Shown here in pieces: positions 14,669-20,645 of a DNA stretch of 64,000 nucleotides. The notes beneath the pieces were generated by a model that saw nothing but the letters and a program-made list of their open reading frames with translations, ran no database searches and was not told the origin of the DNA. The stretch's first letter is position 1, and each line of letters begins with the position of its first letter. A program made the position numbers and the translations under genes. The DNA is from an uncultured Candidatus Saccharibacteria bacterium (GTDB lineage: Bacteria > Patescibacteriota > Minisyncoccia > Phycocordibacterales > Zambryskibacteraceae), in the NCBI GenBank assembly GCA_964582295.1, contig CAZOQP010000002.1:8563-72562 (forward strand), given 5' to 3'.

Positions 14669-15748
14669 TTAGTTGTCGGCCCCTAGCGGAATCAACAATT
14701 TTTGACCAATCAGGATACGGTATGGCTTGGAGAGGCCATTGACTGCCGCGAGTCGCGCGACGGTGGTCCCGTACGCGTCAGCAAGTGTGGATAAATTATC
14801 ACCCCCAACCACAGCATGTTCTGCCACGGCAGAGATGAACAATCTGTCTCCTTCCCGGATTTCGTTCGGAGAGGAGAGGTTGTTTGCACTTTGAAGCTTG
14901 CGTGTGCTTACTCCATAGCGCTCGGCAATGAGGCTGAGCACCTCGCCGCGCTCCACTCGATGTACCAGCGCCGGAATTCGAAGCTCCTGACCAATGCGAA
15001 TCTGGTCTGAGCGCAGGCTGTTGACGCGTCGAATTGCTGCAACCGAGACGCCGTAGCGTTCGGCAATGAGCGAGAGTGCTTCGCCAGACCGAACGCGATG
15101 CGTAGTCCCAGCCGCCGACACAGGCACTGGCGTCCTAGCCGACGCGCGTACTGTTCCGGCTCGATCAGTTACCACCAATGGCCGACCGTTGAGCCGATTC
15201 ACATAGGCGGCGTACTGCTGCGGGTAAAGTGCCACGTGGTAATGTGGTGGTCTACGCTCGCGCGTCGCATTCAACACTCTTGCACCGTCAAGCGCGAGAA
15301 GTGTTCTCTCAAACCATGTCCTGCACTTGCCGGCTGGGGACAGTCGGAAGTCGACCGCCATTCCGGCCGGATGCACCGAGAGCGGGGAAGCATTGCCGGG
15401 CTGGCGACTGCGCGGCCTTGTGCCGCTGGTGACTACGAGCTTCTGCCTGCATACACTGCGATACTGCTTTGCCAACCGCTCGACAAAAAGCTTGACCTCC
15501 GGGCGTACATAGGGGAATGACACCCTGCCAATAGCGTAGTCTGCATTCCCTGGAAGCCGAACGAGAAGGCCGAGGCGCACAAACCTTGTCACTTCTGCCG
15601 TTGTTTCAAGCAGAGTGAAATCGTGCTCTATCGCGACACGGTGCTGCTCTAGCATTGCCGCGCGCGACCCAATTAAGGTCGCCTGCGCGGGAAGATTGCC
15701 AGCCCAGAAAAGGCAGAGCATGGCAACTGCAATAATGCGGTACAGCAT
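14669..15748 (-). CDS. secreted peptidoglycan hydrolase: M15-type (VanY/LAS-like) zinc peptidase domain fused to three LysM repeats
   Basis: N-terminal signal peptide. SGTRP...VHPAGMAVDF and HYHV (LAS metallopeptidase His ligands). Three LysM units (LSLIAERYGVS twice, STLADAYGTT once). Visibly more GC-rich than its neighbours. Confidence 0.75.
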   Translation of the reverse strand: MLYRIIAVAMLCLFWAGNLPAQATLIGSRAAMLEQHRVAIEHDFTLLETTAEVTRFVRLGLLVRLPGNADYAIGRVSFPYVRPEVKLFVERLAKQYRSVCRQKLVVTSGTRPRSRQPGNASPLSVHPAGMAVDFRLSPAGKCRTWFERTLLALDGARVLNATRERRPPHYHVALYPQQYAAYVNRLNGRPLVVTDRAGTVRASARTPVPVSAAGTTHRVRSGEALSLIAERYGVSVAAIRRVNSLRSDQIRIGQELRIPALVHRVERGEVLSLIAERYGVSTRKLQSANNLSSPNEIREGDRLFISAVAEHAVVGGDNLSTLADAYGTTVARLAAVNGLSKPYRILIGQKLLIPLGADN

Positions 15749-15960: not shown

Positions 15961-16302
15961 CTAACCTAGTTTTAAGTAGGTAGTTAGGAAGTCTTTTTCT
16001 TCAACAGGATAGATTGTCAGCTCTGGTATCTTGCTAACTTCAACCCACTCAGGACTATAAGATTGCTTTTCATCCTTGTTATTCGCTTCTACGCTATCTT
16101 TATGAAGCTGTGCTTCGCCTGAGACATATTCACATAGAAATAATGAGTGCTTATCTCCTCTAGGGTCTATAAATTCAAGAAGGTTGTCTTTGAGGTTCGC
16201 TTCTACTGAAGTCTCTTCCTGCAATTCTCTAAGAACCGCTTGATTTAACTCTTCTCCTTCTTCTACTCCGCCACCAGGCAAATACCCAATACTCCTCTCC
16301 AT
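15961..16302 (-). pseudogene. N-terminally truncated NUDIX hydrolase paralogue (113 aa)
   Basis: The Nudix box GGGVEEGEELNQAVLRELQEETS starts at residue 10. The N-terminal beta-strands of the fold are absent, and an in-frame stop lies 6 codons upstream of the ATG. An intact NUDIX gene lies immediately upstream. Confidence 0.4.
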
Positions 16303-16365
16303 TATTGAAACGGTGCATCATCAAAAGTTTACCCTCTCTCAATACGACTGCAGTTGCCCGTGTCC

Positions 16366-16788
16366 TCATTGGAAGTACTTTTCAAGCACATCAAAATAAT
16401 CACTTCCATCATCCACCTCTTTATAATCGTTTTTATCAACCCATCTAAAGTTGTTGTGTTCTTCACTTAAAGAAACTTCACCAGAAAGATATTTAGTCTT
16501 AAAAGCAACCAAATAAACGACCTTTGGATAATTTCGGTGGCTTTTAGGGAACTCGTGATACCAAACAGCAAAGGGATTGAAAACTTCTATCTCAAGACCT
16601 GTTTCTTCTCTAACCTCTCTTTGAAGAGCGGTAATTAGACTAGAAGCATCAGCATCCTTTGCCTCATCTTCTTGAATTTTCCCTCCAGGGAAATCTAGTC
16701 CTTCTACTGGGTCAAACAACACTAGGACCTTTCCGTCTTTTTCAATGAAAGCTTTTTGACCAACACAGAACAAGGCATCATTTTTCAT
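16366..16788 (-). CDS. NUDIX hydrolase
   Basis: Nudix box GGKIQEDEAKDADASSLITALQREVREETGLE. 140 aa. Confidence 0.8.
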   Translation of the reverse strand: MKNDALFCVGQKAFIEKDGKVLVLFDPVEGLDFPGGKIQEDEAKDADASSLITALQREVREETGLEIEVFNPFAVWYHEFPKSHRNYPKVVYLVAFKTKYLSGEVSLSEEHNNFRWVDKNDYKEVDDGSDYFDVLEKYFQ

Positions 16789-17108
16789 ATAAGTTTAAAA
16801 TCTATCATCTTAATAGGCGTATCTAATGAGACCTTATCTCCATAATAACCCCTGTAGTGGTTAAGCATATCTTCTTGGTCCTTATATCCTTCGTGCCCAA
16901 CAAAATCGCTGTCTTCCAGCTCTCCAAGCTTCTTTTCCTTGACCTCAGTTATCTTTCCCTTAGCGAACTCTTCTCCTGTTTCCTTATTAAGCATTAGGAA
17001 GTCATCTCCAACACCAAGACCCTTATCGTCGAACAGTCTCCATGTCGAGGTCTTTTCCCCCGACAGTATCTTTGGAATTAGATGTGGCTTAAACTTCAGA
17101 GTTTTCAT
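16785..17108 (-). CDS. ASCH (PUA-like) domain protein
   Basis: N-terminal ...KPHLIPKILSGEKTSTWR typical of ASCH. ATGA overlap with the NUDIX gene downstream. Confidence 0.55.
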   Translation of the reverse strand: MKTLKFKPHLIPKILSGEKTSTWRLFDDKGLGVGDDFLMLNKETGEEFAKGKITEVKEKKLGELEDSDFVGHEGYKDQEDMLNHYRGYYGDKVSLDTPIKMIDFKLI

Positions 17109-17112
17109 TAAT

Positions 17113-17463
17113 TCAACGCTTAATACCTAGCCTTACTATGGACTTGAAAGAATCAAGTATTTTTCGGTAGATATCCAAAATAAAATTAAAAACAATAATA
17201 AAAAAATAAAAACACATTGATAGTATATAGAATTTGCCTATTGGAGATTTAATTGTTAAATAAATTATACCCGCAATCGGAAATCCATATTTTAGAATGA
17301 AAAGCACTACTACTTTTAGTCTAGAAACTATCTTTTTTGGGTCTGGGTTGTATGTCGTAAAAATTCTGTCAAAAAATGATTTACTAAAGGGCGCAACTAT
17401 CCCGCTGACTATAAAAGTAAAAACTAGAAATATAATTGTTTGTTTATCCATAATAATATACAA
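17113..17463 (-). CDS. integral membrane protein, AT-rich gene of unknown function
   Basis: 3 hydrophobic segments. First gene of the membrane-ASCH-NUDIX operon next to tRNA-Asn. Confidence 0.4.
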   Translation of the reverse strand: MYIIMDKQTIIFLVFTFIVSGIVAPFSKSFFDRIFTTYNPDPKKIVSRLKVVVLFILKYGFPIAGIIYLTIKSPIGKFYILSMCFYFFIIVFNFILDIYRKILDSFKSIVRLGIKR

Positions 17464-17502
17464 ATTTTAATCTAATTTTTAACAGGGTTAAAAAATTAAT
17501 AG

Positions 17503-17574
17503 CTCCCCGGGTAGGATTCGAACCTACGACCAATCGCTTAACAGGCGACTGCGCTACCGCTGCGCCACCGGGGA
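17503..17574 (-). tRNA. tRNA-Asn (anticodon GTT)
   Basis: Cloverleaf folds by hand. Acceptor stem TCCCCGG/CCGGGGA, D-arm GCGC-AGCGGTA-GCGC, anticodon loop CTGTTAA, T-arm GTAGG-TTCGAAT-CCTAC, discriminator G. Confidence 0.85.
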
Positions 17575-17810
17575 ATATTTTTTATGAACTGTCTTCCGCG
17601 ATAACTTTTTAGAGATTTTTCCCTCTTTAATGCGGAAGCTCTGTCGCTATAAACTTCTGAATATATGACTATCCATAAACCGTCATATTGGGAAGTGTAG
17701 CCCTTAAACTTATGTTCGTTATGAAGATCTAATCTTTGGTCTAAATCCTTTGTTTGGCCAATGTAGATCTTATTGTGTTTAGCGTTATGGATTGCGTAAA
17801 CAGTAAACAT
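17538..17810 (-). CDS. GIY-YIG nuclease-superfamily protein (small stand-alone YhbQ/COG2827-like)
   Basis: VYAIHNAKHNKIYIGQTKDLDQRLDLHN... (GIY...YIG motif plus conserved Arg/Glu region). Its 3' end overlaps the first 37 nt of tRNA-Asn. Confidence 0.7.
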   Translation of the reverse strand: MFTVYAIHNAKHNKIYIGQTKDLDQRLDLHNEHKFKGYTSQYDGLWIVIYSEVYSDRASALKREKSLKSYRGRQFIKNIPRWRSGSAVAC

Positions 17811-17825
17811 TTCAATTTACTTATG

Positions 17826-17869
17826 GAACTGCGCTACCTCCGCCAGCTGGCGGAGCGCCACCGGGGGAA
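17826..17869 (-). repeat. partial direct duplicate of the tRNA-Asn 5' end plus ~6 nt of its upstream flank; the D-loop is replaced by a 16-nt perfect palindrome
   Basis: actgcgctacc + [TCCGCCAGCTGGCGGA in place of GCT] + gcgccaccgggg + aatat matches 17547-17580. Cannot form an anticodon arm, so it is not a second tRNA. Confidence 0.6.
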
Positions 17870-17943
17870 TATGTTCTCTTGTGGAGAACAGGGGAAATGA
17901 TAGCAAAAAGGGTAGTTTTTTCACAGCGCGCTAAAATGGAAAG

Positions 17944-18168
17944 ATGCTTATACATGTGAAGGTTTCAGCAGGTGAGAAAAGGGAAAAATTTGAAGAAATT
18001 TCGGATACTCGTTTTGTGATATCTGTGAAGGAAAAAGCGGAAAGGAACATGGCCAACAGGCGCGTGATGGCCATACTGGCCGGACATTTCAAGGTTCCTG
18101 AAAGATCCGTAAGGGTAATAAGTGGTCACCATTCACCGTCTAAAATTATTGAAATAATAGGCAAATGA
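17944..18168 (+). CDS. DUF167 (YggU-like) protein
   Basis: 74 aa; ...VKVSAGEKREKFEEI...FVISVKEKAERNMANRRVMAILAGHFKV pattern characteristic of the YggU family. Confidence 0.55.
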   Translation: MLIHVKVSAGEKREKFEEISDTRFVISVKEKAERNMANRRVMAILAGHFKVPERSVRVISGHHSPSKIIEIIGK

Positions 18169-20109: not shown

Positions 20110-20645
20110 CGCTTTTTGCTTTTTACCGGAACGGGTTTCCACTCATGAAGGTCCGAGGCCTTGTCGGTGAAAAGCACTCCGTCCAAATGGTCACTCTCAT
20201 GCTGAAATATTTGTGCCACCAGGCCGGAAGCCCCGCGGCTGAATTTTTTACCTTTTTCGTCATATGCTTCCAGTTCCACTTTGTCCGAGCGTTTCACTTT
20301 TCCGTAAAGCCAGCGCACCGAAAGACACCCCTCTTCCATGGCTTTTTTAATACGTGAGCTTCTTAGGATCTTGGGATTTATGAAAACTTCGTCCGGATAT
20401 TGCGATTTCGCTTCATCTTCATTCGCAAGAATAGCCCTTACCCGTCCGGAAACCACGAAGATACGCAGAGGCACACCTATTTGGGGCGCGGCAATGGCTA
20501 CTCCGTCGCTTTCACCCTCCAGTGCTTTTTTCATATCTTTAAGTATCTTTTGTATGCGAGAAGAGGGAATTTCCTTCACGGAAACAGGCTCCGCCTTCTG
20601 GCGGAGTACGAGGGTCTCTTCCTCCTGAAAAATCCTGGCAGGCAT
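20106..20645 (-). CDS. def: peptide deformylase
   Basis: PDF motifs GVAIAAPQIG, EGCLSV and HESDHLDG. def-fmt gene order. Confidence 0.85.
   Translation of the reverse strand: MPARIFQEEETLVLRQKAEPVSVKEIPSSRIQKILKDMKKALEGESDGVAIAAPQIGVPLRIFVVSGRVRAILANEDEAKSQYPDEVFINPKILRSSRIKKAMEEGCLSVRWLYGKVKRSDKVELEAYDEKGKKFSRGASGLVAQIFQHESDHLDGVLFTDKASDLHEWKPVPVKSKKR

Follow-up and report, generated by a model that had tools for sequence, protein, structure and literature searches.

The tRNA-Asn gene in a 64-kb stretch of Patescibacteria DNA (contig CAZOQP010000002.1; the whole stretch is called the window below) is preceded by a compact cassette of about 330 bp. The cassette comprises a displaced copy of the tRNA 5′ part, a 16-nucleotide (nt) palindrome set into that copy, and a small gene for a predicted GIY-YIG nuclease, the end of which lies inside the functional tRNA. 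This is probably a homing-type cassette that inserts into the 5′ part of tRNA-Asn and restores the gene. It is one member of a large conserved class and not a singular event. Using ARAGORN and Rfam for tRNA calls and Pfam for the domain call, the order on the minus strand reads promoter and leader, tRNA nt 1–13, hairpin, nt 17–27, spacer, open reading frame (ORF) and tRNA:

17502–17574, minus strand: functional tRNA-Asn(GTT) (ARAGORN; Rfam RF00005, 70.4 bits)
17538–17810, minus strand: predicted GIY-YIG nuclease ORF, 273 nt, 90 amino acids (Pfam PF01541)
17811–17827, minus strand: 17-nt spacer TCCATAAGTAAATTGAA, from the pseudo-fragment to the ATG (direct sequence reading)
17828–17838, minus strand: right arm of the displaced 5′ tRNA fragment, tRNA nt 17–27, GGTAGCGCAGT (exact 11-nt match)
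17839–17854, no strand: 16-nt GC-rich palindrome, or hairpin, TCCGCCAGCTGGCGGA, in place of D-loop nt 14–16 (perfect palindrome)
17855–17868, minus strand: left arm of the displaced fragment, TCCCCCGGTGGCGC, tRNA nt 1–13 plus one extra C (exact 12-nt match)
17869–17924, minus strand: native tRNA-Asn leader and promoter-like site (promoter scan; block conserved upstream of the tRNA-Asn of relatives)

The 90-residue GIY-YIG ORF overlapping the first 37 nt of tRNA-Asn, as reported in the initial annotation of this DNA, is confirmed by all three tools. It reads through tRNA nt 1–37 and stops at the UAA of the anticodon loop, taking its final 12 codons and its stop from the tRNA 5′ part. The second tRNA copy spans 17828–17868 and contains two exact, collinear blocks, with tRNA nt 2–13 at 17866–17855 and nt 17–27 at 17838–17828. 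The duplication had been described correctly as far as these 12- and 11-nt blocks are concerned, but the acceptor strand of the copy has one C more than the tRNA (TCCCCCGG versus TCCCCGG) and the homology stops at tRNA nt 27. About 6 nt of upstream flank had also been counted into the repeat. This we rejected, because the shared ‘atat’ is generic and the 5′ flanks of cassette-free tRNA-Asn genes likewise end in (A/C)AT. Between the two blocks the palindrome replaces the D-loop triplet (GCT on the plus strand, AGC on the tRNA strand), again as first described, and no other exact copy is present in the window.

The promoter scan places a −35 element, GTGAAA, at 17924–17919 and a −10 element, TGcTATCAT, at 17902–17897. 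The tRNA is the sole Rfam match within 17300–18100, where no intron model matches at E values up to 1, and an Rfam search around the ORF gave no RF00028 match and no known motif, indicating that the cassette is not an intron. The GC content of the ORF region is 0.34, compared with about 0.48 for the genome.

With each species represented by one genome, a scan identified 375 relatives in genome contigs, and the best 80 loci (given L numbers here) were kept; they are spread over many Patescibacteria classes. In 77 of the 80 a TCCGCC-N4-GGCGGA hairpin precedes the ORF start by no more than 150 nt, and in almost all of these it is embedded in a copy of that genome’s own tRNA-Asn 5′ part. Each tRNA-like block of the window is by itself marginal in 64 kb (E values of 0.19 and 0.77 with blastn-short), and it is this recurrence, within a tRNA 5′ copy where the loci were parsed, that shows the arrangement not to be due to chance. 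The ORF ends inside tRNA-Asn in 74 of the 80 loci, and 63 of these stop at the UAG formed by tRNA nt 8–10. The window ORF is longer than those of its relatives because G9 of its tRNA abolishes this UAG. Neither the length nor the sequence of the spacer is constant among loci, and TATAAT-like boxes are frequent in it. Relatives that carry the gene nearly always have a duplicated tRNA segment too (the same 77 loci), and the repeat is not a promoter element of tRNA genes.

The fragment closely resembles the tRNA that it accompanies. Identity between the two is 0.87–1.0 over nt 1–14 and 17–25, and drops to background level by nt 28 on one side and past nt −2 on the other. Over acceptor nt 1–7 the fragment matches the resident tRNA completely in 49 of 61 loci (399 of the 427 nt in all), whereas identity over these positions is only 0.71 between different genomes. 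A foreign origin of the right arm of the fragment was considered and mostly rejected, as the identity profile shows that the fragment ends near nt 27. A few fragments (L058, L026, L051 and L070) differ from the resident tRNA in the anticodon-stem or acceptor part.

The same design occurs at other tRNA genes. At tRNA-Lys(UUU) in L114 (2540–2935) the hairpin stands in place of nt ~22–30, and at tRNA-Lys(CUU) in L117 (1440–1831) in place of the D-loop triplet; the stop is formed by tRNA nt 8–10 in both. A further tRNA-Lys(UUU) locus, L116 (1520–1935), has a duplicated block extending from −13 to +59, the hairpin in place of nt 24–33, and a consensus promoter (TTGACT-17-TATAAT) upstream of the fragment. 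L113 (2300–3400) has at least four tandem pseudo-tRNA-Gln units with a different palindrome, TCCCGACTAGTCGGGA, and an ORF after each, and L111 (1–480) is also listed among the loci with this design. The same 16-mer accompanies the nuclease family whatever the tRNA, which argues for a link of the hairpin to the nuclease rather than to the target. A wider census by profile search of 1.84 billion cluster representatives (E values up to 1e-10) returned 740 protein clusters, in which many ORF calls read through the hairpin.

The ORF product matches the Pfam GIY-YIG family PF01541 over residues 2–69 (60.5 bits against a cut-off of 22.6; E = 2e-16), and consists of the catalytic domain alone, with no further domain found by Pfam. 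Residues Y5, Y16, G18, R26, H30 and E64 are invariant in the alignment from which catalytic residues were read (A1; 25 sequences, about 60% identical); by analogy with I-TevI, we take Y5, Y16, R26, H30 and E64 to have catalytic roles. The AlphaFold 2 (AF2) model is confident (predicted local distance difference test score, pLDDT, 88.9) and has the GIY-YIG α/β fold. In a Foldseek search of the PDB the nearest solved folds are UPF0213 (1ZG2, E = 1e-3), Slx1 (6SEH, E = 1.2e-3) and also 1YWL, followed by I-TevI and UvrC N-terminal domains, with no other meaningful matches. Profile comparison with the PDB is weak to both groups (1YWL, E = 0.0017; 1ZG2, E = 0.0063; I-TevI 1MK0, E = 0.0037). Of the two branches to which the initial annotation had thought the protein might belong, the fold is therefore nearer to that of UPF0213/YhbQ (COG2827) and Slx1, with which the protein also shares being a catalytic domain alone, than to I-TevI; sequence similarity favours neither strongly. 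Slx1 works with Slx4 on branched DNA. To our knowledge, UPF0213 proteins have not been linked to tRNA genes or to mobility.

The sole NCBIfam match, TIGR01453, is below its cut-off, and an exact-sequence look-up of the window protein returned no record. All homologues come from Patescibacteria, also called the Candidate Phyla Radiation (CPR); their typical length is 82–83 amino acids. Longer homologue calls have a C-terminal tail, ‘..IPxWRSGSA..C’, that is the translated tRNA-Asn 5′ end, and others have an N-terminal extension (PVALRQLAEVAQ or ‘SPPAGGGRAV’) that comes from translation of the fragment with the palindrome. In L054 (3001–3531) the two tandem ORFs are fused in frame across such a fragment. 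Several database proteins (P0249, P0260, P0285 and P0362) contain two GIY-YIG domains. The ratio of non-synonymous to synonymous divergence (dN/dS) of the ORF is 0.04–0.18, indicating strong purifying selection. Given this selection, the invariant catalytic-type residues and the confident fold, the ORF is clearly functional and is predicted to encode a nuclease.

Comparison of orthologous sites supports the proposal of the initial annotation that the arrangement is the footprint of an insertion at a tRNA gene. Four syntenic loci were compared (the window, L107, L081 and L109), in which Fmt and a hibernation factor are followed by tRNA-Asn, and flank orthology was read from their alignment (A2). 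All four share the block TATCATT..CCC.T..TC.TC..AAGAG.A.ATAT, which comprises the −10-like TATCAT and the leader. This block directly adjoins the functional tRNA in L107 and L081, where there is no cassette; it adjoins the hairpin-bearing fragment in the window; and in L109 it adjoins a degenerate fragment and hairpin that lie 12 nt from the tRNA, with no ORF. The site is thus occupied in the window, empty in L107 and L081, and scarred in L109. Because the native block adjoins the fragment, we read the fragment as the original gene start, the cassette as lying within the old gene, and the functional tRNA as using a second 5′ part. The identical 73-nt tRNA was also found in 11 metagenome loci, and the ORF is absent from all 11. 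The window belongs to a metagenome-assembled Patescibacteria genome, and its Fmt is 100% identical to P0121; its next relatives are at most 63% identical, and those of the loci compared here 58–63% (63% for L107).

In the mechanism that we propose, a break in a cassette-free tRNA gene, or incoming DNA, would be repaired from a cassette-bearing copy by homing-type recombination. The two tRNA-derived segments would serve as portable homology arms, with nt 1–13 on the left and the whole tRNA on the right; a tRNA would suit this role, being among the few sequences conserved between distant genomes. With one crossover left of the hairpin and a second inside the tRNA, the hairpin, the ORF and a new 5′ part would enter together, which would reproduce the structure found, including tandem arrays. 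The first ~16 nt of the functional tRNA would then be a copy brought by the cassette and fused to the resident remainder, so that the tRNA stays functional, while the displaced original 5′ end (nt 1–13) would persist as a dead fragment. The native tRNA promoter may drive fragment, ORF and tRNA as one transcript. Cleavage of this transcript by RNase P at tRNA position +1 would remove the stop of the ORF, giving a non-stop mRNA and a low level of the nuclease.

Two 5′ copies might also result from a long target-site duplication made in place by staggered cuts and fill-in, in which case both copies would be host-derived and the hairpin would have been added later. The usual identity of fragment and tRNA within a genome agrees with this, as does the block of L116, which includes 13 nt of 5′ flank and reaches tRNA nt 59, and the hairpin can turn up where there is no homology to the tRNA, as in intron loops, a terminator loop and its own loop. 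We nevertheless consider such a duplication rather unlikely. The last codons and stop of the ORF always come from tRNA nt 1–10 in one fixed frame, an argument for joint transfer of the ORF and the tRNA 5′ part; the fragments of L070 and L023 differ from the resident tRNA at several acceptor and D-stem positions; and the presence of the hairpin in essentially every fragment, tandem units included, would require a separate, saturating insertion.

Signs of turnover are frequent among the relatives. L054 has two tandem cassettes, each preceded by its own hairpin-bearing fragment, with ORFs that are 60% identical. The second ORF of L026 is reduced to its last ~20 codons, L075 has tandem units of fragment and hairpin without an ORF, and the ORF of L043 is flanked by a fragment at each end. 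The GC content of the ORF is below that of its flanks in 77 of 79 loci, with a mean gap of 8 points and a regression slope of 0.47. In two pairs of loci the synonymous divergence (dS) of the ORF, a noisy estimate for so short a gene, is below that of the flanks (L046/L059, 0.59 versus 1.0–1.6; L052/L078, 0.43 versus saturation). Tandem cassettes, decayed ORFs, low ORF GC and discordant dS point to a mobile element. The suggestion that the GIY-YIG protein is a plausible mobility nuclease is supported, with no site-specific recombinase involved.

Several observations weigh against a homing-type cassette that rebuilds its target. The relatives with empty sites are distant, with Fmt at most 63% identical, and so are not sister strains. 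Because the query used to rank the 80 loci contained the tail encoded by the tRNA, they are biased towards tRNA-Asn contexts. A search of viral contigs found no relatives, and no near-identical cassette turned up in genomes that are clearly unrelated. In the pair L024/L040 the dS of the ORF, again a noisy estimate from a short gene, is 0.93 and exceeds that of the flanks (0.50–0.59). The ORF clades partly match tRNA acceptor types, in a neighbour-joining tree of 78-residue proteins that is poorly resolved; together with the purifying selection, this fits long vertical residence or a benefit to the host. The protein has no DNA-binding module, unlike characterised GIY-YIG homing enzymes, which read long targets. 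It is not obvious how self-cleavage would be avoided, since the rebuilt tRNA does not differ from a naive target, and homing alone leaves the near-invariant sequence of the hairpin unexplained. Both the nuclease activity and its target are predictions.

Some of these points would be expected if the module were an old tRNA-Asn operon passed down vertically, with a GIY-YIG protein that works for its host (in repair or processing at the locus, for instance), a hairpin-bearing fragment that is a regulatory leader and no relic of mobility, and an absence from most genomes that reflects loss. The low dN/dS, the conservation of fragment and hairpin across classes, and the partial agreement of ORF clades with acceptor types and with hairpin position classes are consistent with such an operon; the L024/L040 ORF is no younger than its flanks, and the UPF0213 proteins that provide the nearest folds are usually regarded as housekeeping. 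We think it unlikely all the same. In the syntenic relatives the native promoter lies directly on the tRNA without a trace of the module, tandem cassettes at one tRNA are only 60% identical, ORF remnants and ORF-less scars exist, ORF GC is systematically below that of the flanks and ORF dS far below flank dS in two pairs, and the same design is found at different tRNA genes.

The palindrome is a sequence-conserved hallmark of the class that is also present at tRNA-Lys genes, and is therefore not a random processing scar, one of the origins that had been suggested for it. The exact 16-mer is found in 39 of 56 simple cases and the sequence is near-invariant. The 6-bp stem is paired in all 50 aligned sequences; three of its six pairs show compensatory double changes (for example TCCGCTGTACAGCGGA, TCCGGCAACTGCCGGA and CCCGCCAGCTGGCGGG) and none shows single changes, while the central 4 nt vary freely. 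As single-stranded DNA the hairpin is computed to stack on the D-stem, at −10.7 kcal/mol. The bases that it displaces differ among genomes (AGC, AGT, AAT, AAC and others), which identifies it as an insertion and not a local rearrangement. It stands at nt 14–16 in most loci, at nt 9–11 in nine and at nt 4–6 in one, and these position classes follow the clades of the protein tree.

Our preferred guess is that the small Slx1-like nuclease binds or cleaves the hairpin as its cognate site. Candidate alternatives are that the hairpin protects the displaced fragment from cleavage and interrupts the direct repeat, allowing the cassette to escape deletion, or that it is an RNA-level element in the 5′ leader. 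A tentative extension of the preferred guess, for which we see perhaps a modest chance, is that the GIY-YIG protein and the 16-nt hairpin form a new mobile system, in which a Slx1-like nuclease of ~82 amino acids would act on its own hairpin and not on the tRNA, and the homology arms would provide the targeting. The palindrome differs with the nuclease lineage and is kept across tRNAs, which points to a partnership between nuclease and hairpin.

The hairpin could instead be an independent miniature palindromic element, like mitochondrial GC clusters, with no role in the cassette and with the dead fragment as its nearest permissive site. Nested hairpins such as TCCGCC[TCCGCCAGTTGGCGGA]TGGCGGA, which occur in L007, L011, L014, L016, L053, L066 and L071, speak for this, as do the copies in hairpin loops of group I introns (L034 3337–3352; L043 ~1140–1155), in a terminator-like loop (L036 730–745) and in degenerate downstream copies of tRNA-Asn (L022 3388–3403 and 3556–3571). 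These copies suggest that the hairpin has some local mobility of its own. An element unconnected to the cassette is nonetheless quite improbable. There is one true copy in 64 kb and few away from tRNA-Asn in about 600 kb of relatives, where the extra copies cluster at the tRNA locus, unlike the many dispersed palindromes of REP/RAYT-like elements. As many as 77 of 80 loci have the hairpin, at positions that differ by clade, and the same 16-mer accompanies nuclease relatives at tRNA-Lys, whereas a more distant nuclease lineage (L113) has a different palindrome. Two further hairpin-like sequences were dismissed as coding coincidences: TCCGCCTTCTGGCGGA in the peptide deformylase gene def (window 20590–20605), which encodes LRQKAE, and a 16-mer in fmt of L075, which reads as IRQLAD.

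Other elements also use tRNA-Asn. Of the 80 cassette loci, 9 have a confirmed group I intron that splits the gene after U35, and with probable cases the number rises to as many as 13 (including L005 3261–3522, L062 3262–3467, L013, L014, L033, L039, L040, L043 and L050), and one is present in the cassette-free L107 (7785–8012). They sit in the anticodon loop, apart from the ORF, which does not lie inside a self-splicing intron as the gene of an intron-encoded homing endonuclease does. Collaborative homing of cassette and intron was rejected. The proportion of cassette loci with an intron (11–16%) equals the published background of 15 of 95 genomes with group I introns at position 35/36 of Patescibacteria tRNA-Asn (Nakagawa et al. 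2026, PMC13011429), which suggests that intron and cassette are independent.

The 3′ side of tRNA-Asn in relatives (L092–L106) carries variable islands with large serine recombinases and restriction–modification systems immediately downstream. This hot spot, and a low-GC block downstream of the window tRNA, would be in keeping with the cassette being the attachment-site scar of an integrase-driven genomic island. We rejected a serine-recombinase island scar and regard any such origin as barely credible, because the islands are on the 3′ side of the tRNA and the cassette is on the 5′ side, and the 273-nt ORF stands alone between the repeats, with no recombinase. The duplicated part is the 5′ end rather than the 3′ end of the tRNA, no tRNA-Asn 3′ fragment is found elsewhere in the window, and the upstream context and the cassette are constant while the downstream islands vary.

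Several known systems resemble a homing-type cassette in part. Free-standing GIY-YIG genes of the Seg and Mob type reportedly home in T4-like phages through break-induced repair with co-conversion of flanks; SegB is encoded in the tRNA gene cluster. They share with the cassette a GIY-YIG gene outside introns and beside conserved genes, including tRNA genes, but have DNA-binding domains and do not split and rebuild their target, duplicate a fragment of it or carry a conserved palindrome. Mobile endonuclease ORF elements of fungal mitochondria, such as the atp6 ORF element of Allomyces, reportedly bring a replacement gene end. There too an ORF lies in an essential gene, a copy of the terminus restores that gene, and the displaced native terminus remains as a pseudo-fragment beside the ORF; the host genes are protein-coding, however, and their 3′ end is replaced, whereas the cassette acts on the 5′ end of a tRNA gene and its displaced piece contains a conserved hairpin. 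Integrative elements that target tRNA genes also keep the tRNA functional with a duplicated segment and leave direct repeats, but they use tyrosine or serine recombinases, are kilobases in size and usually duplicate the 3′ end. I-TevI reportedly represses its own gene through an upstream operator that mimics its homing site and is incompetent for cleavage; if the displaced fragment is uncuttable, it would by pure analogy be a similar target copy just upstream of a nuclease ORF.

Selfish elements have been described in the same phylum, among them the group I introns in the same tRNA gene, and CPR rRNA genes have GIY-YIG ORFs in insertions that are not introns (Tsurumaki et al. 2024, PMC11270868). 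That paper and PMC13011429 are both silent on the cassette, on the tRNA duplication and on the palindrome, and no published description of the tRNA cassette was found in open-access papers and bioRxiv, an absence that is no proof of novelty. What is known is that free-standing homing-endonuclease elements can restore their target; what is new is the side of the target, the hairpin hallmark and the minimal nuclease.

Some related loci contain other small elements. A noncoding element of ~170–190 nt, which begins with GGTGGAGTGAG and holds an anticodon-arm-like ..GCCTGTAAGGC.. motif, sits between a 5′ tRNA-Asn piece and the intact tRNA, at the usual place of the ORF. It is present in L084 (~1260–1456) and L020 (3270–3455), and upstream of tRNA-Asn in L087 (two tandem copies) and L088. 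It has no Rfam match at E values up to 0.1, and could be a non-autonomous relative of the cassette or a different element. A second, distant family of small GIY-YIG proteins (YYVYIL..GFT.DLKRR..EHNSG) is encoded downstream of tRNA-Asn in L001 (3300–3760), L065 (3300–3640) and L062 (3600–3850); in L001 and L065 it is preceded by a palindrome, CCCTGTACC-N4-GGTACAGGG, and a repeat of the tRNA 3′ end (CGGAGCC). Contig ends fall no more than 300 nt after the ORF in 16 of the 80 cassette loci and no more than 300 nt before it in 2.

The tRNA-Asn locus of the window is compositionally patchy. Just downstream of the tRNA, a block at 16000–17500 has a GC content of 0.34–0.39 (versus about 0.48) and encodes two NUDIX proteins, an ASCH protein and a small membrane protein; it is probably an island. 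It is adjoined by an ORF for a LysM-repeat peptidase-like protein (14669–15748) with a GC content of 0.57–0.60, against ~0.48 for the genome.

If the cassette does home into tRNA genes, it would represent a widespread, overlooked class of selfish elements of ~330 bp in one of the largest bacterial phyla, which enter essential tRNA genes at the 5′ side and restore them. This would account for the ORF calls that read through tRNA genes, and for the stray 5′ tRNA fragments, in Patescibacteria genomes. Should the nuclease in fact act together with its hairpin, the cassette would be a natural gene-targeting construct that enters the tRNA genes of distantly related Patescibacteria, and for which a switch of target between Asn, Lys and Gln would need only a swap of arms. 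The source of target specificity in an 82-residue nuclease without a DNA-binding domain is a testable question, whose answer might matter in practice if that specificity comes from the hairpin or the homology arms. Small GIY-YIG proteins of the UPF0213/Slx1 type that consist of the catalytic domain alone would also gain their first clue to function from a homing cassette.

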